Assembly: GCA_030390025.1 (NCBI GenBank)
Contig: CM059431.1
Location: 108,626,001-108,690,000 of the forward strand
Direction: 5' to 3'
Source: Squalus acanthias
Lineage: Eukaryota
Length of the DNA: 64,000 nt
Numbering within the stretch: the first letter of the stretch is position 1; each line of letters begins with the position of its first letter. The notes under the pieces are model-generated. The model ran no database searches. It was not told where the DNA came from and saw nothing but the letters and a program-made list of their open reading frames with translations. This document shows positions 197-30,996 of this stretch, one piece after another. Made by a program: the position numbers and the translations under genes.

Positions 197-458
197 TGGG
201 TATAGTAGCGTGGCCGTTACTTTACTGGATTAAGCAATCCAGAGGGCTGGACTAATAATCCAGAGAACATGAGTTCACAAACCCACTATGGCAGTTTGAG
301 AATTTGAATTCCGTTTAAAAAGGAAATCCGGAAATAAAAGGATGGCATCAGTAAAATGCGACCATGAAGCTGTCAGATTGTTGTTAAAAACTGCTTTACT
401 AATTTTATTCAGGGAAGGAATCCTGCTGTACTTAGCTGGCCAGGCCTATATGTGACTC
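197..458 (+). mobile_element. tRNA-derived SINE (family C), 5' part; continues at 4368-4402 after the provirus
   Basis: GCCTATATGTGACTC|CAGTCCCACACCA is contiguous in the copy at ~19150. The head is tRNA-like. Confidence 0.8.
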
Positions 459-551
459 TGTGAAGGAATAAGCCATATAACCTATTCAGAAAAATACCCC
501 GCCTGATCCGGGGTAGCCCTAAAGGGGCTAGGACTAGTAAAAATCCCTTCA
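459..551 (+). repeat. 5' LTR, internally deleted (93 bp)
   Basis: 459-497 matches 3238-3276 and 501-551 matches 4314-4363; about 1037 bp of the LTR middle is missing. Confidence 0.92.
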
Positions 552-553
552 GT

Positions 554-571
554 TGGTGACCAATGTGTGTG
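554..571 (+). promoter_or_regulatory. Primer-binding site, decayed tRNA-Lys1,2 type
   Basis: TGGTGACCAATGTG lies 2 nt after the LTR CA. It matches the foamy Lys1,2 PBS TGGCGCCCAACGTG at 11/14, and two of the three mismatches are CpG>TpG. Confidence 0.75.
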
Positions 572-811
572 TTAACGAGTTGATACAGAAGCCTATACTT
601 ATAATTATATCTTTATCCATCTCGTAGATTGTTAAGTATAGAAGGAGTATTTTACTGACAGTGGTACTAAGACCCAGATTTAAGTCTCTAGAGACGACAA
701 GTCCCTGATCAGGCCTTGTAGAACTTAAATCAGAACACCCTCAATATACCATTGAGGTCTAGAAATTTCTTATAAATTTCATATTAAATCCTAAGGTTAG
801 GTCCTGACGAA

Positions 812-2852
812 ATGGCAAACCCTGTCGGAATTGGCCAAGTCTTTTTATTAGGAAATTCAAACGATTGCTACCATCAAGTCATTTACTCTGATGGATCATC
901 AATGATGATTAAAAAAGGGACATCCCAACAATCCTCAGCTGGGATGGGGATAGTAGTAGGGACTTTGAGATTCCTATTCTTTTTATCCAGAAGAATTACT
1001 GTCCATACCCCTTGGCCATAAGACAGTGCAATATGCTGAAGCCGCAGCACTACGGTATGCTTTTAGAAAAGGCAGACCCTATTAAACCCACATTAATCTG
1101 TACAGATAGTGACTATTGTAAAAGAGGATATAACCAAGATCTAGTTTTCTGGGAACAAACAAACTTTACCAATCATAAGGGTAAACACATAAAACATAAG
1201 TCATTGTGGGAAGACATTCTCCATTCGAGGATGGAGAAACAGAATTGTCAGGTGATTCCTGTAAATGGGCATACCACTGGGACAGTACACTCAAAAGGAA
1301 ACAGTCTTGCAGACGAACAAGCGAAATGTTCGGCCTGTCTGACACCCCCTCAAGAGGGGCCTGCCAATATTAGTGTTATCACTAGGGCAGAACGGGCAGC
1401 TAATCAGGATGAGGAACTGATTCAGCTATTAGACCCAACAAAAGAGAATCCACCAGGATATCCATCAAAGTACTTTTACTCAGAAACCCCTACCGGTATT
1501 GTGCTAGTTAAGTTGCCCAAGGGAAACCAAGAGGTACCCCCGAGATACAAACGAGAACAGCTTGTAAAAGAAGCTCACAAAGGCATAAGTCAAGCACATT
1601 GTGGTGCCAGAACAACATTCTGCAAATTGACTCCCTTATATTGGTGGCCAGGCATGCTTAAGGCCTGTAAAATATATGTGGCAAATTGTGAGCCATGCAA
1701 TTTAACCAATAAGTCATCACTAATTAAGCCACCACCATTGGCTCCTGTGAAAGCTGATGAACCAATGGGAAAATTCTTTATTGACTTTATTGGACCACTT
1801 CCCCCATCTTTGGGATACAGACATGTTCTCGTTTGTGTAGATGGATGCACTTCCTTCTGCTGGCTGGTCCCCACAAAAACTATTTCGGAAAACGCACTCG
1901 CCAATGCTATTACTGACATAATTACTGTAGCTGGTGCACCTAAAATCTTACACTCCATTAAAGGTGGAGTCTTTGTCTCCAAGGTCTTCAAAGACTACTG
2001 CGAACAAAGGGGGATTGGGTTAGAGCACAGCACGCCACATCATCCACAATCAGCGGGGCTGGTGGAACGTAAAAACCAGGAAATAAAAAAGCTATTGGTC
2101 AAACTGTTGAGAATCAGAGGAAATAAGTGGATCACCATCATTTTGGAGGTGCAGCTAACACTTAATAATGTGCCCGCATCTGCATCAGGGACAGTGTCCC
2201 CTAAAACTCCATATTATCTAATGTATGGGGTTGAGATGCATACACCGCTTACCCATGGTTCTTTTATTGCCTCTACACTCTCTGATTCCTTGACCCGACA
2301 GCGAGTTAGATTTAAAAAAAGATGTAACAGAGGAGATACATCAAATTGATCAGAGGATAAGCGAGACAAATAGGCAGAAAAAAATTGACAAACAAAGCAT
2401 GGCAACCCCTAGCAGGAGAATGGGTACAGGAAAAGAAGTTCAAGCAAAAACTTGGTTTAAGACCTAAGTGGAAAAAACCTGTTCAAATACGTTCTGCGAT
2501 TAACGAGAGAACTGTTAAAATACATATTAATCATCCGAATGGCAAGCATATTCTTAAAACTGTCTCCATAGACAATCTCAAAAGATGTCCTGCAGGATTC
2601 CGAAATGGAGGAACAATACAAGGTGCAGTCGTATACTGTCTTCCAAGACCCAGCTTGGAGCACGACACAAGAAATGGATGCAATCGAACTACTGACGACG
2701 GTCAGCCAGACAGTGTCGCCGACTCCTCCACACGATGCCTGGCAATGCCACAGCAATTGGATTCGCAAAAAGCCACAACCAAAACAATTAAAGACCAGCA
2801 AGTTACTTCAACGAAGGAGGAAAACACTGCGGATGGAGAAGGAATCAGCTGA
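812..2852 (+). pseudogene. pol: Foamy-like pol remnant: RNase H plus integrase (NED, HHCC, core, CTD), about four frameshifts
   Basis: RNase H motifs YSDGS..SAGMGIV, SIPLGHKTVQYAEAAAL (frame from 1002), TDSDY and GNSLAD. Integrase motifs GYPSKY, AH..H..YWWP..CEPC, KFFIDFIGPLPPS, HPQSAGLVERKNQEIK, LRPKW and TVSIDNLK. All parallel PFV Pol. The second catalytic Asp is lost (HSIKG versus HSDQG). Confidence 0.92.
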
Positions 2853-2871
2853 GCTTCTGGCAAGGCCTTGA
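2605..2871 (+). pseudogene. Probable env leader start (or orphan accessory ORF), truncated
   Basis: The ATG lies within the AAT-GGA (N-G) codons just after IDNLK of integrase, the overlap position recalled for foamy env. No SU/TM motifs follow. Confidence 0.4.
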
Positions 2872-3225
2872 CGAAAACAAGAATCTGTCCTCACGCTGGA
2901 TCAATGGAACAGTGTGTCAAGCTTCAGCCAGCTCCAAATGACGTCTTCTTGACTTGTATGACTAACTCACCTCTACGGAACGTACATCTGTCAATTGGAC
3001 ATTTTAATTACATGTTGTTTCGCTAATTGCATGACAATGTACCTATCATTCTTTTAATTTGTGTTCAATTTAAAATAAGGCAAAACATTGTCCTGGGATG
3101 ACTTAAAGGAATTTTCATGTAGCACATGATTGGGCTCTTGTGAATCTCGTGAAATTAATGTACTATTGTAACCTTATTTGTAACATTGACCAAACTCTGC
3201 CCTGATGCTCGAGCTCATCTTTTGG

Positions 3226-3237
3226 TCAAGAGGGGTG
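3226..3237 (+). promoter_or_regulatory. 3' polypurine tract
   Basis: TCAAGAGGGGTG immediately precedes the 3' LTR TG. Confidence 0.8.
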
Positions 3238-4363
3238 TGTGAAGGAATAAGCCATATAACTTATTCAGAAAAATACACTATCTTATGAAAAAATTCTGGC
3301 CTTATTAAAACATGACAAACTGGGTTTGGAAATTTAGAAACCTAACTATGAAATAGCTATGAAAGCATTCTGGCTATTGAGATAAGACAGTTATTGACCC
3401 TGAATAAATAACCTTATTGAAACAGAAGGTGAAGGGCTCAGACAAACTGACCTTTTGGGAACAAAACAATGGTTCACCCTGGATAAGGTGTTCTTCGTAA
3501 AGATAGCACATAAGATAAGGAACATCTGCCCTCGTAAAGATGACATAAAGTAAGGAACACCTGCCATCACACCGTTTTATATGGTAAACTTAGAACACCT
3601 AGAGATGAGACAAGATTCTGGCTGAGGTGGCAGTAAGAGTTGCAGAGGTTGGCAGAAAAATGACTAGAGATAATTAGTTTGCATCAGCAGAATACCTTAA
3701 AGGAAATACCACTGGAAAAGGGTATAAATATTGAACTCTCAAATGGGATAACAGACTCGCTTTAATCGGGTAAAGCGATTCTTGGCTTCGGAGGCGGCTC
3801 TGTAGTCTACCACCTTTTGTACCTCAGGGATCAAAGGTATTTGATATTAATGGATATCCTGTATAGAGAACTTTAAGAACTGTAATACTGTAGTGAAGTT
3901 AAGATTTAAAAGAAAGATTCTCTGTTAAAAAGATAGTACGTTTTCTCTTTTTAGAATTGTTAATGTTGCGATTGACTGATTCACCAACTGTAAATTGCAT
4001 GTCGGTTCTTTAATAAATCTATATATTTTTAGAATTGTCTTACAAGTCATCTGTATCAAAAACTCGCAAACTCAATCTCTGTACACTTTTTGGTGGAGAG
4101 TTGCAGAATTCTGGGGGAGTTTTCCAGACCCTCATAATATCCGGAACGTTACAGTCTAGCTAAACTTATTAAAAGCATTATCTGGAGGACGGTAACATTC
4201 TCGGGTTGTTCCTTTCCTTTAGGGAGAGATGGCCCGGACCTTTAGACCCAATTAAGCGTCTTTAGGATTTGGCTACCTCAAACTTTAGTTGAAAGTGAAC
4301 GTCTGAGAAATACGCCTGATCCGGGGTAGCCCTAAAGGGGCTAGGACTAGTAAAAATCCCTCA
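3238..4363 (+). repeat. 3' LTR, full length (1126 bp)
   Basis: TG...CA ends. TATAAATA at 3723, AATAAA at 4012, and a ~35-bp tandem repeat in U3 (3496-3565). Confidence 0.92.
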
Positions 4364-4871
4364 ACTCCAGTCCCACACCAGCGTGCAGTTTATAACGGGT
4401 GACTGATCTACTATTGGTTGTTTTGCATCCTCGCTGAAGTTGAATTTCTCCCACAGATATATTTAGGTTTTCAACAAATTGACCAGACCCAGCTTCCCCA
4501 AAGCACAGCTCTCTGCTTCCCCTCACCCCAAAGTGCTGCTATTTCTTTCCCCCATTCCCAAAACGCTGATGCTGGTATCTTCCCTCTTTTTTCCCCCCCT
4601 GCACAAAAGTGCTGCTCTTACCCTGACCCTCCCCGAAGACTGTTGCTCGATTCCTTCTCCTGAGCACTGCCCCTGAGCTCTTCCCCGATGGCACTGCCGC
4701 TGTGATTGACGATGCCGGAAACTGAATGGGAATCGCTGAGCTCATGGAATTCCCATCCACAGTTCACAGCATCATCAAACGCAGCTGGATAGCCAGCAGG
4801 TAGGAGCTTGGGAGCAGCGTTAAGGGGAAGGATCTGGTCTGCACTGAATTTGGTTGGCAAGCATAGATAGG

Positions 4872-9751: not shown

Positions 9752-10995
9752 CTATGCAAATCTGGCCATGATAAGTTCATCCCTTGCATCCCGGGCAGTC
9801 ATGTGCTCGCGTGCTGCCGCTGCTGCTGATCGATACACCGGCACTCTGACCTCCTCCTCCTCCTCCTCCAGATCCTCCTCCTCCTCATCCTCATCTGAGG
9901 AGGGCTGGAACTGAGCCACTTGCTCATCAGGAAGCTGCAAGCCACGACGCTGTGCGATGTTGTGCAGTGCACAGCAGACCATTACCATTCTGGAGACCCT
10001 GTATGGTGTATACTGCAGGGCTCCACCTGATCGGTCAAGGCAAAGGAAGCGCATCTTCAACAACCCAATGGTTTGCTCGATGATGGACCTGGTCGACGTG
10101 TGGCTGGCGTTGTAGCGCTCTTCAGCCTCGTTAGCTGGCCTCCTGAACGGCGTCATTAGCCACTTCTTCACGGGGTAGCCTTTGTCACCAAGGAGCCAAC
10201 CGTTAAGTTGGTTTGGCGGATTGAAAAGCGGAGGAACACTAAAGTGCCGCAGGATGAAAGAGTCATGGCAACTACCACAGAACTTGGCGCAAACATGCAA
10301 GAACTCCTTCTTGTGGTTACACACCAGCTGTACGTTGAGGGAATGGAAGCCCTTGCGGTTGACAAAGATAGCTGGATTGTGATGGGGTGCCCTAAGGGCC
10401 ACATGTGTGCAGTCTATGACGCCCTGCACCATTGGCAAGCCTGCCATATTTGCAAAGCCAACTGAACAGGCGGTTATACTTGCTTGATCCCTTGAGAACT
10501 GGATGTAATTGTGGGCCTTAGCAAAAAGGGCATCGGTAACCTGCGTGATGCATCTGTGGGCTGCCGACTGGGAGATGCCGCTGATGTCTGCTGATGATCC
10601 CTGGAAAGAGCCTAAGGCAAAGAAGTTGAGTGCGGTGTGACTTTGACAGCCACTGGTAAGGGGTGTCCACCCGTTCCTCTGGGCACCAGGTCTTGCTGCA
10701 GCAGTCCGCAGTTCTCTCGGACAACCTCTCGCGAAAGTCTCAGCCTCCTTTGGCACTGCTGCTCACTCATGTTGAGGTATCTCATCCTCTGTCTGTAAAC
10801 CCTCTGTTGGGGCTATCTCCTGTGGTGAGGTGCCTCGATGCGCTGGCGCCTTCTGCCCTGGGCAGCATCTGGTGACTGAGCAGGAGGTTGGGGGTCCTGC
10901 TGCTGTTGCTGCTGAGCTGCCTGGTTCTGATGCTGCCGTGGATGCTCCTCATCTGAATCTGAGGTCAATGGAGAAAGAAAACGAATGGTTCCCAT
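9752..10995 (-). pseudogene. Harbinger DDE transposase (HARBI1-like family)
   Basis: [59 protein letters not shown]. The core is open, but the N-terminus (MGTIRF at 10995) is broken by a stop and a frameshift. Confidence 0.92.
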
Positions 10996-11441: not shown

Positions 11442-14380
11442 TCAGTACCCCATTCCTGCTTTCTCGCCATACCCCTTGATCCCCCTAGTTGTGAGTATTA
11501 TATCTAACTCCCTTTTGAATATATTTAGCGAACTGGCCTCAACAACCTTCTGTGGTAGAGAATTCCACAGATTCACCACTCTCTGGGTGAAGAAGTTCCT
11601 CCTCATCTCAGTCTTAAATGGCTTCCCCTTTATCCTTAGACTGTAACCCCTGGTTTTAGTTTTCCCTAACATTGGAAACATTCTGCCCGCATCTAATTTG
11701 TCTAAACCAGTCAGGATTTTAAACATCTCTATAAGATCCCCCCTCATTCTTCTGAACTCCAGAGGATACAAGTTCAGTTGATCCAGTCTTTCTTGATATG
11801 TCAGTCTGGCCATCCCAGGAATCAATCTAGTGAACCTTCGTTGCACTCCCTCAATAGCAAGAATGTCCTTCCTCAAGTTAGGAGACCAAAACTGCACACA
11901 ATACTCCAGGTGTGGCCTCACCAAGGCCCTGTACAACTGCAGCATCACCTCCCTACTCCTGTACTCAAATCCCCTTGCTATGAAGGCCATCATGCCATTT
12001 GCTTTCTTGACTGCCTGCTGCACTTGCCTTCCCACCTTCAGTGACTGATGTACCATGACGCCCAGGTCTCGTTGCACCTCCCCTTTCCCTAATCTGCCAC
12101 CATTCAGGTAATAGTCTGCCTCCCTATTTTTACCACCAAAGTGGATAACCTCACATTTATCCACATTGTACTTCATCTGCCATACATTTGCCCATTCACC
12201 CAACCTGTCCAAGTCACTCTGTAGCCTCCTAGCATCCTCCTCATTGTTCACACTGCCTCCCAATTTAGTGTCATCCACAAATTTGGAGATATTACAATTA
12301 ATCCCTTCGTCCAAATCATTAATATATAATGTAAACAGCTGGGGCCCCAGCACCGAACCCTGCGGTACCCCGCTGGTCACTGCCTGCCATTCTGAAAAGT
12401 ACCCATTTACTCCTACTCTTTGTTTCCTGTGTGCCAACCAGTTCTCAATCCACGTCAACACATTACCCCCAATCCCATGTGCTTTAACTTTGCACACCAA
12501 TCTCTTGTGTGGGACCTTGTTGAAGGCCTTCTGAAAGTCCAAATACACCACATCTACTGGTTCCCCCCCCCGTCCACCCTATTGGAAACATCCTCAAAAA
12601 ATTCCAGAAGATTTGTCAAGCATGATTTCCCTTTCACAAATCCATGCTGACTTGGACCTATCATGTCGTCACTTTCCAAATGGTCTGTTATGACATCTTT
12701 AATAATTGATTCCATCATTTTACCCATCACCGATGTCAGGCTGACCGGTCTATAATTCCCTGCTTTCTCCCTCCCTCCTTTTTTAAAAAGAGGGGTTACA
12801 TTAGCCACCCTCCACTCCTTCGGAACTGATCCAGAGTCTAAGGAATGTTGGAAAATGATCGTCAATGCATCCACTATTTCCAAGGCCACCTCCTTAAGTA
12901 CTCTGGGATGCAGACCATCAGGCCCTGGGGATTTATCAGCCTTCAGTCCCATCAATTTCCCCAACACCTTTTCCCGACTGATAAGGATTTCCCTCAGCTC
13001 CTCCCTCTTACCAGATCCTTTGATCTCTTTTATTTCCGGAAGGTTGTTTGTGTCCTCCATAGTAAACACCGAACCAAAATACTTGTTCAATTGATCTTCC
13101 ATTTCTTTGTTCCCCATTATGACTTCCCCTGTTTCTGACTGCAGGGGACCTACGTTTGTTTTTACTAACCTCTTTCTTTTTACATATTTATAGAAGCTTT
13201 TGCAGTCCGTTTTAATGTTCTCCGCAAGCTTCCTTTCATATTTTATTTTCCCTGCCCTAATCAAACCCTTCGTCCTCCTCTGCTGAGTTTTAAAGTTCTC
13301 CCAGTCCCCGGGTTTGCTGCTACTTCTGGCCAATTTGTATGCCACTTCCTTGCTTTTAATACTATCCCTGATTTCCCTTGTTAGCCATGGTTGAGCCACC
13401 TTCCCTTTTTTATTTTTACGCCAGACCGGGATGTACAATTGCTGTAGTTCATCCATGCAATCTCTAAATGTCTGCCATTGCCCTTCCACTGATAACCCCT
13501 TAAATATCGCTTGCCAATCTAACCTCGCCAATTCACGCCTCATACCCTCAAAGTTGCCCTTATTTAAGTTCTGGACCATGGTCTCTGAATTAACTGTTTC
13601 CTTCTCCATCCTAATGTAGAACTCCACCATACTATGGTCACTCTTCCCCAAGGGGCCTCGCACCACAAGATTGCTGATTAGTCCTTCCTCATTACACAAC
13701 ACCCAGTCCAGGATGGCCTCCCCTCTAGTTGAGTCCTCAACATATTGATTTAGGAAACCATCCCTTAAACACTCCAGGAAATCCTCCTCCACCGTATTGC
13801 TTCCAGTTTGAGTAGCCCAATCTATATGCATATTAAAGTCACCCATGATAACTGCTGCGCCTTTTTTGCATGCACCTCTCATTTCCTGTTTCATACCCTC
13901 CCCCACCTCACTACTACTGTTTGGAGGTCTGTACACAACCCCCACTAACGTTTTCTGCCCTTTGGTGTTCTGCAGCTCAACCCATATTGATTCCACATCC
14001 TCCAAGCTAATGTCCTTCCTAGCTATTGCATTAATCTCCTTTTTAACCAGCAATGCTACCCCACCCCCTTTTCCTTTTATTCTATCCTTCCTGAATGTTG
14101 AATACCCCTCGATATTCAGTTCCCAGCCTTGATTGTTCTGGAGCCACGTCTCTGTAATCCCAATCACATCGTATCCGTTAACATCAATTTGCACAGTCAA
14201 TTCATCCACCTTATTACTGATACTCCTTGCATTAAGACACAGAGCCTTTAGGCTTGTTTTATTAACACCCTTTGTCCTTTTAGACTTATGATTTAGTATG
14301 GCCCTTTGTGTTTCTTGCCTTTGTTTACTCGGATTTCCCTTATTGTTTCTCACCCTTCTAACATTTGTTTCTGACTGCAT
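11442..14380 (-). CDS. CR1 ORF2 (APE endonuclease plus RT), one frameshift at C9 12563-12571
   Basis: LNARS, GITETW, GDFN, SDH, NYRPVSLTS, GVPQGSVLGP, FVDD. ORFs 12554-14380 and 11442-12551 join if one C is removed. Confidence 0.92.
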
Positions 14381-14427
14381 ATTACTTCCCCCTGTTTCGC
14401 TACATAGGTTCCCCTTCCCCTGCCATA

Positions 14428-14928
14428 TTAGTTTAAATCCTCCCGAACTGCCTTAGCAATTATTACCCCGAGGACATCGGTTCCAGTCCTGCCCAAGTGC
14501 AGACCGCCCCTTTTGTACAGGTCCCACTTCCCCCAGAACTGGTTCCAATGCCTCAGGTATTTGAATCCCTCCCTCCTGCACCACTGCTCAAGCCACGTAT
14601 TTAATCTCGCTATCCTGTTCATGCTACTCTGATTAGCATGTGGCACTGGTAGCAACCCAGAGATTACTACCTTTGAGGTCCTACTTTTCAATTTAGCTCC
14701 TAGCTCCCTAAATTCTGCTTGTAGGACCTCTTCCCGCTTTTTACCTATATCGTTGGTACCTACATGCACCACGACAGCTGGCTCTTCACCCTCCCTTTCC
14801 AGAATGTTCTGCAGCCGCTCCGAGACATCCTTGACCCTTGCACCAGGGAGGCAACATACCATCCTGGAATCTCGGTTGCGGCCACAGAAACTCCTGTCTA
14901 TTCCCCTTACAATTGAGTCCCCTATCAC
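14428..14928 (-). CDS. CR1 ORF1 SGNH/GDSL esterase domain (partial)
   Basis: IGDSIVR, PGARV, VHVGTND, GLHL esterase blocks. Confidence 0.88.
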   Translation of the reverse strand: MIGDSIVRGIDRSFCGRNRDSRMVCCLPGARVKDVSERLQNILEREGEEPAVVVHVGTNDIGKKREEVLQAEFRELGAKLKSRTSKVVISGLLPVPHANQSSMNRIARLNTWLEQWCRREGFKYLRHWNQFWGKWDLYKRGGLHLGRTGTDVLGVIIAKAVREDLN

Positions 14929-15443: not shown

Positions 15444-18400
15444 GAAACATAGAAACATAGAAAAATAGGAGCAGGAGTCGGCCATTCGGCCCTTCGAGCA
15501 TGCTCCGCCATTCAATATGATCATGGCTGATCCTCTATCTCAATACCATATTCCCGCTCTCTCCCCATACCCCTTGACGCCTTTTGTGTCTAGAAATCTA
15601 TCTAGCTCCTTCTTAAATATATTCAGTGACTTGGCCTCCACAGCCTTCTGTGGTAGAGAATTCCACAGGTTCACCACCCTCTGAGTGAAGAAATTTCTCC
15701 TCATCTCAGTCCTAAATGTCCTACCCAGTATCCTGAGACTGTGACCCCTCGTTCTAGACCCCCCAGCCAAGGGAAACACCCTCCCTGCATCCAGTCTGTC
15801 TAGCTCTGTCAGAATTTTATACGTTTCAATGAGATCCCCTCTCATTCTTCTAAACTCTAGTGAATACAGGCCTAGTCGACCCAATCTCTTCTCATACGAC
15901 AGTCCTGCCATCCCAGGAATCAGTCTGGTGAACCTTTGCTACACTCCCTCTATGGCAAGTATATCCTTTCCTAGGTAAGGAGACCAAAGCTGCACACAGT
16001 ACTCCAGGTGTGGTCTCACCAAGGCCCTGTACAACTGTAGTAAGACATCCTTGCTCCTGTACTCAAATCCTCTTGCAATGAAGGCCAACATACCATTTGC
16101 CTTCCTAACTGCTTGCAGCACCTGCATGTTTGCTTTCAGTGACTGGTGTACAAGGACACCCAGGTCCCTTTGTACAAAACAATTCCCAATCTAGCACCAT
16201 TTAAATGATGCTCTACCTTTCTGATTTTCCTACCGAAGTGGATAACTTCACACTTATCCACGTTATACTGCATCTGACATGTATTTGCCCACTCACTGAA
16301 CTTGTCTAAATTGTCTTGAAGCCTCTTCGTATCCTCCTCACAACTCACAATCCCACCAAATTTTGTGTCATCAGCAAACTTGGAAATATTACATTTGGTT
16401 CCCTCATCCAAATCATTGATATATATTGTGAATAACTGGGGCCCAAGCACTGATCTCTGCGGTATTTCACTAGTCACCGCCTGCCACCCCGAAAAAGACC
16501 CATTTATTCCTACTCTCTGTTTCCTGTCTGTTAACCAATTTTCAATCCATGCCACTATATTACCCCCAATCCCATGTGCTTTAATTTTGCACACTAACCT
16601 CTTATGTGGGACTTTATCAAAGGCCTTCTGAAAATCCAAATACACCACATCCACTGGTTCTCCCTTATCTATTCTACAAGTTACATGCTCAAAAAACTCC
16701 AGTAGGTTTGTCAAACACGATTTCCCTTTCATAAATCCATGTTGACTTTGTCTAATCCCATTGATATTTTCTAAGTGTCCTGTTATCACATCCTTTATAA
16801 TAGACTCTAGCATTTTCCCTACGGCTAACTGTTCCCTGTTTTCTCTCCCCCTCCTTTTTTAAATAGTGGGGTTGCATTTGACACCCTCCAATCTGCAGGA
16901 ACTGTTCCATAGAAACATAGAAACATAGAATCTAGGAGCAGGAGTAGGCCATTCAGCCCGTCGAGCCTGCTCCACCATTCAATACGATCATGGCTGATCA
17001 TCCAAATCCAGTACCCTGTCCCTGCTTTAATCCCCACAGTACACATATCCCACCCTACCCCCGTAACCCCACGTATTTAATTCCCCCTAACATATCCCAT
17101 CCTATCCCCATAACCCCACATATTTAATCCCCCCCTAACACTAAGGGTCAATTTATCATAGCCAAATCAACCTAACCCACACATTTTTGGACTGTGGGAG
17201 GAAACCGGAGCACCCGGAGGAAACCCACGCAGACACGGGGAGAATGTGCAAACTCCACACAGACAGTCACCCGAGGTCAGATTCGAACCCGGGTCTCTGG
17301 CGCTGTGAGGCACCAGTGCTAACCACTATGCCACCGTGTTGCCATAATCTATAGAATTTTGGAAGATGACAACCGATGCATCCACTATTTCCATGGCGAC
17401 CTCTTTTAGTACTCTGGGATGCAGATTATCAGGCCCTGGGGATTTATTAGCTTTCAGTCCCATTAATTTCACCAGCACTATTTTTTTACTAATACTAATT
17501 TCCTTTAATTCTTCCTTCTCACTAGACCCTTGGTTCCCTAGCATTTCTGGGAAGTTATTTGTGTCCTCTTCCGTGAAGACAGAACCAACGTATTTGTTTA
17601 ATTGCTCGGCCATTTCCTTGTTCCCCGTTATAAATTTCCCATTTCTGACTGTAAGGGACCTATATTTGTCTTCACTAATCTTTTTATTTTTACATACTTG
17701 TAGAAGCTTTTACAATCCACTTTTATATTCCTTGCAAGTTTACTCTCATACTCTATTTTTCCCCTCTTAATCAATCCCTTGGTCCTTTTTGCTGAACTCT
17801 AAATTGCTCCCAATCCTCAGGCTTGCTACTTTTTCTGACAACTGTATATGACTCCTCTTTGGATCTAATACTATCCTTAATTTCTTTTGTTAGCTATGGT
17901 TGGGCCGCTTTTCCTTTTGTGTTTTTGCACCAGAAAGGAATGTATAACTGTTGCAATTCATGCATTCGTTCCTTAAATGCTCACCATTGCCTATCCACCG
18001 TCATGCCTTTTATTGAAGCTCCCCAATATATCATAGCCAACTCACTCCTCATACCATCGTAGTTTCCTTTGTTTAGATTTAGGACCCTAGTTTCGGATTG
18101 GACTTCTTCACTTTCCATTTTAATGAAGAATTCTACCATGTTATGGTCACTCTTCCCTAAAGGACCCCGCACAACAAGGTTATTAATTAACCCCTTCTCA
18201 TTGCACAATACCCAATCTAGGATAGCCTGTTCCCTAGTTGGCTCCTCAATGTACTGGTCTAAAAAACCATCTCTTACACACTCCAGGAATTCATCCTCCA
18301 CAGTATTATTGCTAATTTGGTTTGGCCAGTCTATATGTAGATTAAAGTCACCCATGATTACTGTAGTACCCTTGTTACCTGCATCTCTAATTTCCTGTTT

Positions 18401-18677
18401 GATGCCATCCCCTACATTACCACTACTGTTTGGAGGCCTATAGACAACTCCCACCAATGTTTTCTGCCCCTTGGTGCTTCTTAGCTCCACCCAGACTGAT
18501 TCTACATCTTGATTTTCTGAGCCAATATCCTTTCTCACTATTGCTCTGATTTCATCCTTTACTAACAAGGCCACGCCACCTCCTTTTCCTTTTCGCCTGT
18601 CCTTCCTAAATATCGAATATCCTTGGATATTCAGCTCCCAGCCTTGGTCACCCTGCAGCCATGTCTTCGTAATCGCG
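15444..18677 (-). mobile_element. CR1 LINE, 5'-truncated, frameshifted, interrupted by an HE1 SINE
   Basis: Endonuclease (17981-18670) and RT (16136-16813, FADD) fragments, with a CATAGAAA tail. Confidence 0.93.
16908..17343 (-). mobile_element. HE1-type V-SINE
   Basis: tRNA-like head, V-domain GTGTGGAGTTTGCACATTCTCCCCGTGTCTGCGTGGGTTTCCTCCGGGTGCTCCGG, CR1-type 3' tail, and CCATA at both junctions. Confidence 0.88.
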
Positions 18678-18792
18678 GATGTTGGGCTGTGATATGTTGA
18701 AAAATGCTCCAGCATTTCAGTGATAGGGGTGCAGAGGTAGAGGAGAAGGCTGGCAGTAATGGGGAAGTGGAGGGAAACAATCTATGTTACTG

Positions 18793-19335
18793 GACGTGGT
18801 TGACTCTTAACTGCCCTCTAAAGTGGCTGAGCGAGCCACTCAGTTGTATCAAAACTGCTACAAAGATTGAAGGCCCACCATTAGCTTCTCAGGGCATCTA
18901 GGGCTAGCAATAAATACAGGCATTGCCAGCGGTACCCACATCCCGAGAATGAATTTTTTGAAAACTAGTAATCCAGAGCACTGGACTAATAATCCACAGA
19001 GCGTGAGTTCAAATGCCACCATGGCACTTTGAGAATGTTGAATTCAGTTTAAAAGAAAATCTGGACATAGAAAGCTGGTACCAGTTAAAGTGACCATGAT
19101 GCTATCGGACTGTCATTAGGGAAAGAAACCTGCCATCTTACCCGGTCTGGGCCTATATGTGATTCCAGTCCCACACCAACGTGGTTGACTCTAAATTGCC
19201 TTCTGAAGTGGCCTAGCAAACCTGCTACAAAGAGTAGGACTTCAGTGGTTGAAGAAGGTGGCCCACCACCACCTTCTCGGGGCAATTAGGGGTGAGCACT
19301 AAATGCTGGCCTTGCCAGAGATGCCCACATCCCAA
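18793..19335 (+). mobile_element. SINE family C copies (3' fragment plus longer copy)
   Basis: Homologous to 197-458 and 6205-6582, with a LINE-B type tail. Confidence 0.75.
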
Positions 19336-19769: not shown

Positions 19770-20950
19770 GCAAAATACTGCGGTTGCTGGAAATCCGAAA
19801 TAACAACAGAAAACGCTGGAAAAACTCAGCAGGCCAGGCAGCATCCGTGGAGAGAGAAACAGAGTTAACGTTTCAGGTCGAAGTCCTTTCGTCAGAACTG
19901 GAAAAAAGCAGGAAATGAAATACATTTAAAGCAAGGATAAAGCTGGGAAAAGGGGGAGGGGATGAAAGAACAAAAGGAGAGATTAAGAGACATTGAGAGA
20001 CATTAAGAGATGATCAAGGCAAGAGGAAGTGTTAATGTGATAGGTTGAGGCTAAAAGAAGTGTGAAATGCACTGGCAGAATGAAGGACAGCTGCCAGCTT
20101 CTGGGAGGAAAAAAAAAGGGGGGGGGGCAAACAAAAGGGTGGATGAAAAAATAAAATATAAATGTGATAGGGGCTGAGGTTATGATCTAAAATTGTTGAA
20201 CTCGATATTGAGTCCAGAGGGCTGTAGGGTGCCTAAACGAAAGATGAGGTGCTGTTCCTCGAGCTTACGCTGAGCTTCCGTGGAACAGTGTAATAGGCCG
20301 AGGACGGTGAGGTCAGAGTGGGAGTGGAGCGGAGAATTAAAGTGACAGGCCACCGGGAGCTCGGGGTCCCCCTTACGGACTGAACGGAGGTGTTCCGCAA
20401 AGCGGTCACCCAATCTGCGTTTGGTCTCCCCAATGTAGAGGAGAGCACATCGTGAGCAGCGAATACAGTATACTAAATTGCAGGAAGTACAAGTAAATCG
20501 CTGTTTCACCTGGAAGGGGTGTTTGGGGCCCTGGACAGTGGGAAGAGGGGAGGTATAAGGGCATGTGTTGCATCTCCTGCGCTTGCACGGGAAGGTGCCG
20601 GGTGAAGGGGAAGGGGTGCTGGGGGTGGTAGAGGAGTGGACTAGGGTGTCGCGGAGGGAGCGGTCCCTGCAGAATGCTGAAAGGGGAGGTGAGGGGAAGA
20701 TGCGTTTGGTGGTGGGATCATGCTGGAGGTGGCAGAAATGGCGGAGGATGATCCGTTGAATGTGGAGGCTGGTGGGGTGAAAGGTGAGGACAAGGGGAAC
20801 TCTATCGTGGTTCCGGGAGGGAGGGGCAGGGGTGAGGGCAGAAGTGCGGGAGATAGAACGGACACGGTCGAGGGCCGTGTCGACCACAGTAGAGGAGAAT
20901 CCTCGGTTGAGGAAAAAGGAAGACATGTCGGAAGCACTGGTCACCCTGGG
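19770..20950 (-). mobile_element. Penelope-like retroelement 3' part (GIY-YIG endonuclease plus pseudo-LTR)
   Basis: CKRRRCNTC, NLVYCIRC, LYIGETKRRLGDRFAEH, EQHLIFRLGTLQPSGLN; pLTR at 19770-19905. Confidence 0.93.
19863..19899 (-). ncRNA. Minimal type I hammerhead ribozyme in Penelope pLTR
   Basis: agtt-CTGACGA-a-agg(acttcga)cct-GAAACGTT-aact on the minus strand. Confidence 0.75.
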
Positions 20951-22295
20951 TATAGACTGCTGAGGAGAGACATTGAAAGAGAATGGAATGATCACCGTTT
21001 CACAAGATAGTGTAGATGTTGAGGAGGATGAAGAGAGAGAGAGAGAGAGAAAGCCAGTCAGAGTCACACAGTATTTGACCAGTCTGGTCTTAGTGCTGTG
21101 GTTGGGGTGGAAATAAATTGAAAGGTCTAGAATAAAGAGTGGTAGATAAGGTGGGAGTGCAGTTGTGAGGCAACCAACACATTCTAGGAGTCTGAAGATT
21201 AAGGGAAGGTTGGAGATAAGACAGCAGTTGGAGAGAGCTTGGAGGGACTAAAGATGACTTCCTTGTCAGGAGGAGACTGATATTGGCAGTGTTCAAGGAG
21301 ATGTTGACAGTGTCAGAGAATAATGACAAGTTGATGATGTCAACAAATATGGGACTAAGGACGTGTCATTGGGTGGTCAGGAGCTGAGACAGGGGTGGAA
21401 CAAAGCAGCAGGTGGCAGGCGTCATGGACAAGTTGGGTATATTAAGGGTTGAGGGGGAAATGGGGGAGAAAACAGATTGGCTCAGGGCTTGGTGCAAGCA
21501 GGAGGGGCAGCTGGGAAAAGTGAAAACAGAGGGACAGTCAGTGGAGGCAGTAGCAGCTTTGCAAATTACATCAGCAATAGAACTGGCAAAAATGGCATCT
21601 TCCACGTTGATTTTTCACGTCTGTGTTCAAAGACATTCAGGTGCATAACAGGTGCAGATGATGATAAACCATAAATTTGAGTGAGCTTCAAGCATGATAC
21701 AAATCCTTCCATGGAAAAGGAAGTACGAAATCATTTATATTTTTCAAAAAAAACCTCATGTGTTGGAAATAGAACAATTTATTCTAGCTTCAGACCCAAG
21801 ACTTCACCGTACCTGCCAAGAAACCACCTGGACAGTGTCTTAGATCATTGCAAATGTTCATCCCGTAGGCACTAGGATTCTTTTGAAGAGGCATCAATTT
21901 ATTTTTTATCACTTACCAGCCAGTTCAGTATCTGCTAATTACCCAAAACAGATTGGCAGAATTTTATATCACCAACAGCGCCTCAGATAAACAAATGTTA
22001 TAAAGAATTATTATTCATTTTTTTGTCTACATCTGGTGATTTTTGGTTAAACGGTGAGAACTGTTGTCATAATTGAGGGATCTGACTGAATAAAGTTACA
22101 AAGCCAAACAATGCAGCGTTCCCAAATCAGGACCCAACTTTTCCTAAAGGCTTTGCATTTACCCAATGCTGTTTCTTTTTTTGCCACAAGGTTGAAACCA
22201 AGGCAAGAAAAGTGTGTAATCAAAGACATTTTAACAACTTAGGTAGAATTTGAATGTTAGGGGATTGTACAATCTTTCAATAATTCAATAACACA

Positions 22296-28526: not shown

Positions 28527-30996
28527 TTTTTTTTTATTAGTTTTATGGGATCAGGGTGTCGCTGGCAATGCCAGCCTTTATTGCCCATTCTTAGTTGCCC
28601 TTGAGAAGGTGGTGGTGAGCTGCCTTCTTGAACCGCTGCAGTCCGTGTGGTAATGGTACTCCCACAGTGCTGTTAGGTAGGGAGTTCCAGGATTTTGACC
28701 CAGCGACGATGAAGGATCGACGATATACTTCTAAGTCAGGATGGTGTGTGACTTGGAGGGGAACTTGGAGGTGGTGGTGTTCCCATGCGTCTGCTGCCCT
28801 TGTCCTTCTAGGTGGAAGAGGTCGCAGGTTTGGGAGGTGCTGCCGAAGAAGCCTTGGCGAGTTGCTGCAGTGCATCTTGTAGATGGTACATACTGCAGCC
28901 ATGGTACGCCGGTGGTGGAGGGAGTGAATGTTTAAAGTGGTGGATGGGATGCCATTCAAGCGGGCTGCTTTGTCCTGGATGGTGTCGAGCTTCTTGAGTG
29001 TTGTTGGAGCGGCACTCATCCAGGCAAGTGGAGAGTATTCCATCACACTCCTTACTTGTGCCTTGTAGATGGTGAAAAGGCTTTGGGGAGTCAGGAGGTG
29101 AGACACTCGCCACAGAATACCTAGCCTCTGACCTGCTCTTGTTGCCATAGTATTTATGTGGCTGGTCCAGTTAAGTTTCTGGTTCATGGTGATCCCCAGG
29201 ATGTTGATGGTGGGGGATTTGGCGATGGTAATGCCATTGAATGTCAAGGGGAGGTGGTTAGACTCTCGCTTGTTGGAGATAGTCATTGCCTGGCACATCT
29301 GTGGTGCGAATGTTACCTGCCACTTATCAGCCCAAGCCTGAAAATCGTCCAGGTCTTGTTGCATGCGGGCATGGACTGCTTTATTATCTGAGGAGTTGCG
29401 AATGGTGCTGAACACTGTGCAGTCATCAGCGAACATCCCCATTTCTGACCTTATGTTGGAGGGAAGGTCATTGATGAAGCAGCTGAAGATGGTTGGGCCT
29501 AGACACTGCCCTGAGGAACTGCTGCAGCGATGTCCTGGGGCTGTGATGATTGACCTTCAACCACCCCAACCATCTTCCTTTGTGCTAGGTATGACTCCAG
29601 CCAGTGGAGCGTTTTCCCCCCCGATTCCCATTGACTTCAGTTTTACTAGGGCTCCTTGATGCCAGACTCGGTCAAATGCTGCCTTGATGTCAAGGGCAGT
29701 CACTCTCACCTCACCTCTGGAATTCAGCTCCTTTGTACATGTTTGGACCAAGGCTGTAATGAGGTTGGGAGCCGAGTGGTCTTGGCGGAACCCAAACTGG
29801 GCATCAGTGAGCAGGTTATTGGTGAGTAAGTGCCGCTTGATAGCACTGTCGATAACACCTTCCATCACTTTGCTGATGATTGAGAGTAGATTGATGGGCG
29901 GTAATTGGTCGGGTTGGATTTGTCCTGCTTTTTGTGGACAGGACATACCTGGGCAGTTTTCCACATTGTCGGATAGATGCCAGTGTTGTAGCTGTACTGG
30001 AACAGCTTGGCTAGAGGCGCGGCTAGTTCTTGAGCACAAGTCTTCAGCACAATAGCTTGGATGTTGTCGGGGCCCATAGCCTTTGCTGTAACCAGTGCAC
30101 TCAGCCGTTTCTTAATATCACGGGAAGTGAATCAAAATGGCTGAAGACTGGCTTCTGTGATAGTGGGGACCTCAGGAGGAGGCTGATATGGGTCATCTAC
30201 TCGGCACTTCTGGCTGAAGTTGGTTGCAAACGCTTCAGCTTTGTCTTTTGCACTCACCATCCATTGAGGATGGGGATATTCTTGGAGCCTCCTCCTCCCG
30301 TTAGTTGTTTAATGGTCCACCACCATTCACGACTGGATGTGGCAGGACTGCAGAGCTTTGATCTAATCCGTTGGTTGTGGGATTGCTTAGCTCTGTCTAG
30401 AGCATGCTGCTTCCGCTTTTTAGCATGTATGTAGTCCTGTGTCGCAGCTTCCCCAGGTTGGCACCTCATTTTTAGGTACGCCTGGTGCTGCTCCTGGCAT
30501 GCTCTTCTACACTCGTCGTTGAACCAGAGTTGATCCCCTGGCTTGGTGGTAATGGTAGAGTGAGGAATATGCCGGGCCATGAGGTTACAGATTGTGGTGG
30601 AATACAATTCTGCTGCTGCTGATGGCCCACAGCACCTCATGGATGCCCAGTTTTGAGCTGCTAGATCTGTTCTGAATCTATCCCATTTAGCACGGTGGTA
30701 GTGCCACACAACACGATGGAGGGTGTCCTTAGTGTGAAGACGGGACTTTGTCTCCTCATTGACTGTGCGGTGGTCACTGCCGCCAATGCTGTCATGGACA
30801 GAAGCATCTGCGACAGGTAGATTGGTGAGGACGAGGTCAAGTAGGTTTTTCCCTCTTGTTGGTTCACTAACCACCTGTCGCAGGCCCAGACTGGCAGTTA
30901 TGTCCTTCAGGACTCGGCCAGCTCGGTCAGTAGTGGTGCTACCGAGCCACTCTTGGTGATGGACATTGAAGTCCCCCACCCAGAGTACATTCTGTG
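28527..30996 (-). mobile_element. LINE family B (endonuclease C-terminus, RT, 3' end)
   Basis: VGDFNVHH, SDH, ALDIKAAFDRVWH, MFADD; several frameshifts. Confidence 0.9.

Follow-up and report, generated by a model that had tools for sequence, protein, structure and literature searches.

Short forms of a foamy-like endogenous retrovirus family in Squalus acanthias, probably copied in trans, with a 3' pol region that may be kept as an RNA signal

We analysed a stretch of 64,000 nucleotides from Squalus acanthias (assembly GCA_030390025.1, contig CM059431.1, positions 108,626,001 to 108,690,000 of the forward strand; hereafter the window), in which positions 459..4363 hold a foamy-like endogenous retrovirus (ERV). 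This element is a short form that was probably copied by the Gag and Pol proteins of longer relatives, its RNase H-integrase DNA probably being kept as an RNA signal. The course of events that we envisage is as follows. An infectious ancestor would first have become env-less, then amplified within the germ line, and there given rise to forms without reverse transcriptase (RT) that use the proteins of the ancestor. These RT-less copies were very probably packaged, reverse-transcribed and integrated in trans, and it is likely that they spread mostly within germ-line cells. The helpers would have made Pol by UGA readthrough of a gag-UGA-pol frame, which we also consider likely, whereas retention of 3' pol as a signal resembling the foamy cis-acting sequence II (CAS-II), and not as a gene, is a step on which we are evenly divided.

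A family of several hundred copies in tiers

The element had been presented as a lone notable insertion; instead, it belongs to a family of several hundred copies, and its gene losses are inherited. A genome search with the long terminal repeat (LTR) gave 40 scored matches at 90-100% from 5176 candidates, the exact 27-mer of the LTR end occurs 563 times, and exact searches with 18-mers from the leader and the integrase gene returned 286 and 310 matches, respectively. The several hundred internal copies fall into tiers, namely, few env-bearing copies, many env-deleted gag-pol copies, and short forms without gag, protease and RT. First, the foamy env family PF03408 scored above cut-off at six sibling loci (tier A), which is a lower bound. 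Second, tier B copies keep Gag_FV_central, Spuma_A9PTase, RT, RNase H and integrase, with env cut to its 5' end plus a 33-bp island; this env deletion pattern is shared by 60 of the 63 readable loci, some of them fetched twice, and a different env deletion occurs at two. Third, tiers C and D lack RT as well as env, and the short form occupies 25 of the 29 other top integrase loci.

Exact patterns spanning the junctions were found in the genome at 45 sites for C1, the junction of the window copy, at 49 for C2 and at 131 for copies with the 5' part of gag intact, with zero matches for the reversed controls. These counts are floors, because recall of the patterns among fetched loci was incomplete (3/11, 6/16 and 6/11, the first set including five mosaic copies). 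When every fifth gag-intact copy among the first 100 of 131 was inspected (n=20), 10 had lost RT by different deletions that stop where RNase H begins, 8 had RT whole or in part, and 2 broke off early.

Env-bearing, env-deleted gag-pol and several RT-less forms have their LTR, primer-binding site and polypurine tract in common. A non-autonomous LTR retroelement is recognized by the absence of RT, intact cis-acting ends, the same deletion at many independent sites, and an RT-bearing partner with the same LTR, and all four were found here. Some loci deserve separate mention. L022/L188 and L095 share an alternative env deletion and an LTR type, and each has its own RT-removing deletion, with integrase kept in both; L107 is a tandem pair of copies with one LTR in common; and the C1/C2 mosaics L028-L031 and L034 lie on small unplaced contigs, probably as a single duplicated site.

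Foamy affinity of the family

A foamy-lineage insertion had been proposed in the preliminary description, and the comparisons made here bear this out. The integrase motifs it had listed are present in the window, and among solved structures the integrase of prototype foamy virus (PFV) was the best match to that of the window (E 1e-68, with Ty3 at 7e-13 and HIV at 1e-6). Identity to foamy virus integrases is 40-45%, and RT-RNase H of a sibling is 43% identical to that of equine foamy virus. In a tree of 35 rows, RT of sibling P0002 clusters with foamy viruses and the protein P0017 (support 100/98), and in a quick tree of 34 rows the window integrase clusters with the same foamy set (SH-aLRT 98), both trees being drawn from a chosen subset of 74 matches that holds no labelled rows of ERV-L or of foamy-like endogenous retroviruses (FLERVs). 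The integrase phylogeny that had been called for thus places the element with foamy viruses and not with Gypsy, within a comparison of that composition. A Ty3/Gypsy or orthoretroviral origin was ruled out by the integrase E-values together with the RT and integrase trees.

The long siblings encode a spumavirus Gag without a Cys-His box, an A9 protease and the RT motif YVDD, all absent from the window copy itself, and Env of foamy type, detected as PF03408 at the six sibling loci, is present in the window as fragments only. With its RT grouping, a 4-bp target-site duplication, a Lys-type primer-binding site and GGGTG at the edge between polypurine tract and LTR, the family is a foamy-like ERV, outside Spumaretrovirinae in the strict sense. 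None of 4028 candidates passed E 1e-20 when homologs of the window frame were sought, and protein homolog searches found no close named protein for the family. Regarding other proteins met in this work, P0017 (1687 aa) carries protease, RT, RNase H and integrase in one frame with a gag-like region; it groups with foamy viruses and is a second foamy-branch element with fused gag-pol. P0016 is a 1156-aa Pol that nests among mammalian foamy viruses, its branch being rather long.

Retention of 3' pol in the short forms

The integrase of the short forms evolves neutrally, without selection at the protein level. Among 52 short copies, integrase variants absent from long copies gave nonsynonymous to synonymous counts of 24:6 when shared and 451:121 when singletons. 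Purifying selection was considered and rejected, since its signal vanished once variants also found in long copies were removed. Moreover, the second catalytic Asp is replaced by Val or Ile in 10/20 C1, 16/30 C2, 6/9 D, 2/15 long env-less and 0/6 env-bearing copies, so that it is lost in 32/59 RT-less copies, the window copy included, versus 2/21 long ones (p 3e-4, a descriptive value only, as the copies are related). Because the private changes are neutral and loss of this residue is widespread, the integrase protein of the short forms appears to be dispensable.

At the DNA level, seven shared deletions all avoid the integrase gene, the chance of which is 0.008 under random placement. To avoid the bias that comes from finding copies by their integrase, we also took the first 100 of the 286 leader matches, cross-matched by eye: an integrase match lies downstream in 71, and the remaining 29 comprise 12 copies with most of integrase and 17 that end before it or early in it. 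These 17 all have different end points, and none shows a polypurine tract plus LTR start in the 6 or 9 kb inspected; an integrase-less multi-copy lineage was not seen among the 100 leader-chosen copies. In PFV, the regions needed in cis are CAS-I, from the leader into gag, and CAS-II, about 1.8 kb of 3' pol (PMC5035957 section 2.2; PMC3185757; here and below, sources are cited for the passages available to us). The short forms keep PFV-like cis regions, and this resemblance, together with the statistical hint from the deletions, points to a putative RNA signal. Whether 3' pol is kept as the carrier of a CAS-II-like packaging or reverse-transcription signal is in our judgement an even question, with the integrase region of the window copy (1384..2645) as the candidate region.

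Several observations weigh against an RNA signal. First, leaving out C1 raises the probability that integrase is spared to 0.03, and leaving out C2 as well raises it to 0.12; these two deletions may not be independent, because their ends lie <=60 nt apart and mosaics between them exist (L028-31, L034). Second, single-copy deletions within integrase, with the 3' end complete, occur at L140 and L192. Third, five of the seven shared deletions are in frame (p 0.045), as are both main junctions, which fits a need for a protein or an open frame; likewise, before variants found in long copies were removed, the shared integrase changes were apparently purifying (w 0.2-0.37). Fourth, 3' pol holds no copy of the polypurine tract, unlike PFV, the best match having 2 mismatches at 1352. 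Fifth, if Pol came as Gag-Pol, the role of CAS-II in Pol encapsidation would be unnecessary. An 11-nt purine run lies at 2428 in the 3' pol of the window.

The best-placed alternative accepts that the short forms are non-autonomous and holds that 3' pol was kept by accident, through a hot spot for template switching where RT meets RNase H, exchange among genomes packaged together, and selection for a long open first frame that escapes nonsense-mediated decay. It is possible, although we lean against it. Switching plus recombination is a live rival, because C1 and C2 are close, form mosaics and are intermixed in the integrase tree; in addition, 3' break points cluster at reference 3558-3664, C2 lies on a microhomology, and each of the three shared deletions beginning in gag preserves the frame. 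However, the smaller shared deletions avoid integrase too, and the leader-chosen copies yielded no lineage without it, although LTR elements that are much shorter are known in other families.

Spread and age of the family

Foamy capsids bud only with Env, and primate foamy genomes can retrotranspose intracellularly (PMC3705263); a high number of copies has been linked with loss of env (PMC10536682). Given this dependence of budding on Env, the env-less forms are likely to have spread mostly inside cells. That the deleted genomes spread mainly by reinfection, using the Env of env-bearing copies, is in comparison unlikely. Env-bearing copies are indeed of similar age, with LTR pairs at 3.0-6.5% in three of four, but their loci number only six, as a floor, versus several hundred internal copies, and no systematically sampled copy with sequence as far as env has that gene in full. 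Furthermore, three LTR pairs of env-less long copies, at 1.4-1.8%, point to env-less expansion after the last env-bearing insertions.

In LTR pairs of the deleted forms, the median difference is 3.9% for C1 (range 3.6-5.0%, n=5), 3.6% for C2 (n=12) and 3.6% for D (n=4). A further 11 pairs gave 2.5-6.5%; the pair L085/L086, at 21%, was excluded from the age range as likely mismatched. With pairs differing by 1.4-6.5%, the family is not young. At the substitution rate of 0.5e-9 assumed for a catshark (PMC10699275), here borrowed, the age of C1 would be near 40 million years. The family was detected in sequencing runs of several labelled organisms, and no RNA runs were listed among those carrying it. 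Contigs from two runs, of organisms B and C, span the 3' junction of the window copy, with flanks about 6% different, and in organism D 24 LTR bases stand on a flank about 10% different, which is below the bridging rule. Thus, the modest age first suggested for the insertion is weak in view of the same-type LTR pairs and of the junction bridged in two other organisms. The proposed look at the orthologous site gave this bridged junction, and no empty site, with its short interspersed element (SINE) uninterrupted, among the joints listed.

Expression of Pol in the long copies

At 26 gag/pol junctions, pol continues in the gag frame after TGA (20), TGG (3), TGC (1) or TAA (1), with one junction shifted. 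A Met between the gag stop and the protease site was found in 0/17 readable copies, a further 19 junction matches having no readable protease site, and on the DNA reading the long copies do not show a separate-frame Pol with its own start, as in Spumaretrovirinae. Because gag, UGA and pol share a frame and a Pol start codon is absent, helper Pol was probably produced by UGA readthrough, unlike in true foamy viruses, where Pol comes from a separate spliced RNA (PMC3185757). Engineered foamy Gag-Pol fusions replicate (PMC3196705), and the class III element XtERV-S has the same gag-TGA-pol layout (PMC8278194). Two points speak against readthrough or limit it: a hairpin after the UGA was not above shuffles (z -1.2 to -2.0), which gives no support, and the same frame in env-bearing copies is seen at the sole junction that is readable there (n=1).

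A spliced RNA for Pol of the kind that true foamy viruses use, with the shared frame as a coincidence, is rather unlikely. It is compatible with the DNA data, and AG dinucleotides lie just 3' of the gag stop; nevertheless, these nearby AGs have no clear pyrimidine tract upstream, as judged by eye, and both the missing in-frame Met and the TGA layout of XtERV-S argue against splicing. Downstream of env, no shared frame of >=70 aa was found in five env-bearing copies, all decayed, when tas or bet was looked for; the distance from env to the polypurine tract is about 0.5 kb in one env-bearing copy.

Coding content of the short forms

It could also be argued that the short forms encode a small Gag-RNase H-integrase fusion that they need or benefit from. 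The gag AUG is joined in frame to RNase H-integrase at both main junctions (16/17 C1 and 18/20 C2 copies read), and the first and third catalytic residues, as well as HHCC, are mostly kept. Yet the shared changes private to these lineages are neutral, one catalytic Asp is missing from roughly half of the short copies, five D copies have an integrase stop in common, and the D4 deletion pair is out of frame, all of which makes a functional fusion improbable. On a separate note, stops account for roughly 10% of nonsynonymous singletons in RNase H-integrase of short copies, which is above expectation.

The window copy

The features of the window copy, all on the + strand, are listed below, with the approach used in brackets.

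455..458, +, left target-site duplication ACTC, within the host SINE (flanks, repeat copies)
459..551, +, 5' LTR remnant of 93 bp, LTR start 459-497 (39 nt) joined to LTR end 500-551 (52 nt) (LTR comparison)
554..567, +, primer-binding site for tRNA-Lys(CTT), decayed, 11/14 match (tRNA comparison)
568..811, +, leader, common to every family tier (copy comparison)
812..868, +, first 19 codons of gag (copy comparison)
868..869, +, family junction C1, with about 3.3 kb (remaining gag, protease, RT) missing and the gag start in frame with RNase H
869..1383, +, RNase H coding sequence, with frame breaks near 970 and 1070 (domain search)
1384..2645, +, integrase coding sequence, with N-terminal extension, HHCC, core and SH3 (domain search)
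2605..2880, +, 5' end of env, overlapping the pol end (comparison with env-bearing copies)
2880..2912, +, 33-bp mid-env island flanked by two family deletions (comparison with env-bearing copies)
2911..3227, +, stretch from the env end to the polypurine tract
3228..3237, +, polypurine tract AAGAGGGGTG, ending in GGGTG (motif according to PMC5210030 section 3.4)
3238..4363, +, 3' LTR of 1126 bp, with TATAAA at 3723 and AATAAA at 4012 (LTR search)
4364..4367, +, right target-site duplication ACTC, after which the SINE resumes (flanks, repeat copies)

The outer ends agree with the first reading of the stretch, which had recognized TG...CA LTRs, the ACTC duplication, a split SINE that rejoins, a Lys-type primer-binding site and a polypurine tract: the element begins with TG at 459 and ends with CA at 4363. 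A genome search with the left-flank repeat, which presumably resembles a shark-type SINE, gave 40 scored copies at 78-84%. In three uninterrupted copies TGTGACTC is followed by CAG or TAG, in the same order as in the right flank of the window, and a fourth aligns through the insertion site, so that continuity was seen in 4/4 loci. The window has a second copy of this SINE at 18967-19113. Elsewhere in the family, the 4-bp duplication is exact at 16/18 solo LTRs, three of the 16 representing a single duplicated site, and has one mismatch at the other two. At L002, L004 and L007, one solo LTR lies in three copies on contig C5, a segmental duplication. In its family form, the primer-binding site pairs with the 3' end of the genome's own tRNA-Lys(CTT) across 14 nt, with 3 mismatches in the window copy. 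Large tRNA-Lys(CTT)-like arrays occur on contigs C21 and C26, with a period of 1798 bp in one.

The collapse of the 5' LTR is a local event, in which about 1.04 kb was lost at a short microhomology, and is not a family trait. The one substitution and one indel first counted between the LTRs were confirmed, the indel being terminal, and two extra bases stand at the internal junction of the remnant. Single-site deletions with intact outer ends were also seen at L113, L125, L036, L117, L121, L122, L144, L166, L170, L178 and L184; in these, either the 5' LTR has collapsed in the manner of the window copy, or internal sequence runs directly into the last part of the 3' LTR.

The copy is without gag beyond its start, protease, RT and most of env, losses on which the preliminary description was silent. 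Its env 5' piece ends short of a hydrophobic stretch that an env-bearing copy has. In integrase, the second catalytic Asp is absent and the frame breaks near 2303 and 2390, for a total of four breaks in the coding frame. With its 5' promoter lost and its frames broken, the copy is now dead. The missing genes were inherited, as C1 recurs on many contigs, with 45 sites in all, and 60 loci have the env junctions of this copy. The local look of the 5' LTR collapse and of the frameshifts might suggest decay of one complete provirus after it had integrated here, but for the internal deletions these multi-site junctions reject that reading, which keeps a negligible probability. Other transposon frames lie on the minus strand of the window at 9755-10762, 11445-14452, 16139-18781, 20183-21247 and 28594-29556, comprising one DDE_Tnp_4 transposase, several endonuclease/RT frames of long interspersed elements and one weak GIY-YIG match.

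Discussion

In our reading of reviews, foamy viruses are odd above all in expressing Pol separately and in having a further cis signal within 3' pol, two traits whose order of appearance is at issue here. The Squalus family adjoins mammalian foamy viruses in the RT and integrase trees; it seems not to express Pol separately, and its deletions may reveal such a cis signal. It is possible, although less likely than not, that natural deletions here produced counterparts of minimal foamy vectors again and again, in which case a CAS-II-like signal was already needed in a foamy lineage with Gag-Pol readthrough. The RNA signal in 3' pol would then be older than the separately spliced Pol of mammalian foamy viruses and might have made it possible. 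The family would also be a germ-line case of a foamy-like virus becoming an env-less element with parasites of its own; if the cis signal fails, what is left is an ERV family with deletion derivatives, ordinary though well resolved. In the literature listings and passages searched, no description was found of a non-autonomous tier, its retention pattern or readthrough on the foamy branch. Foamy-like ERVs of sharks as such are already published (PMC5512871, PMC10699275), and an endogenous foamy virus (EFV) of cartilaginous fish is reported by Wang, Chen and Cui 2023.

Comparison with known systems

MaLR, ETn and the deletion forms of IAP are non-autonomous LTR elements, with deleted forms copied in trans; the Squalus family differs from them in being foamy-like and in keeping the integrase region. 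It shares with env-less superspreader ERVs such as IAP the loss of env followed by high copy number (PMC10536682). From class III, XtERV-S and ERV-L resemble it in having gag and pol in the same frame, split by TGA, and in the env-less state of ERV-L, but they have YIDD, dUTPase and the major homology region (PMC8278194), in contrast with the YVDD of the Squalus family and its Gag, protease and Env domains of foamy type.

Exogenous foamy viruses (PFV, equine, feline) have in common with the family the spumavirus Gag, A9 protease and Env domains; by contrast, the family has gag-UGA-pol in a single frame, no AUG for Pol, no polypurine tract copy in 3' pol and, in its decayed env-bearing copies, no evident accessory genes. 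Minimal PFV vectors keep CAS-I, -II and -III, and what the short form retains is comparable, namely, the leader with the beginning of gag, 3' pol, polypurine tract and LTR (PMC5035957, PMC3185757, PMC3705263), with 57-115 nt of gag retained versus about 200 in the vectors.

Among the published foamy-like ERVs are CmiFLERV, AciFLERV and NviFLERV (PMC5512871), the teleost EFVs (PMC5210030) and ERV-Spuma-Sca (PMC10699275). Their RT and integrase group with foamy viruses, and they show the Lys primer-binding site, the 4-bp duplication, the GGGTG edge and no Cys-His box. In the passages available, ERV-Spuma-Sca has no detectable Gag or Env domain and groups with teleost FLERVs (PMC10699275), whereas the Squalus family has both domains. 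In these works, complementation in trans has been suggested as possible for young teleost FLERVs; going by these descriptions, multi-copy tiers without env or RT and a gag-stop-pol layout, as found in the Squalus family, are not described for FLERVs.

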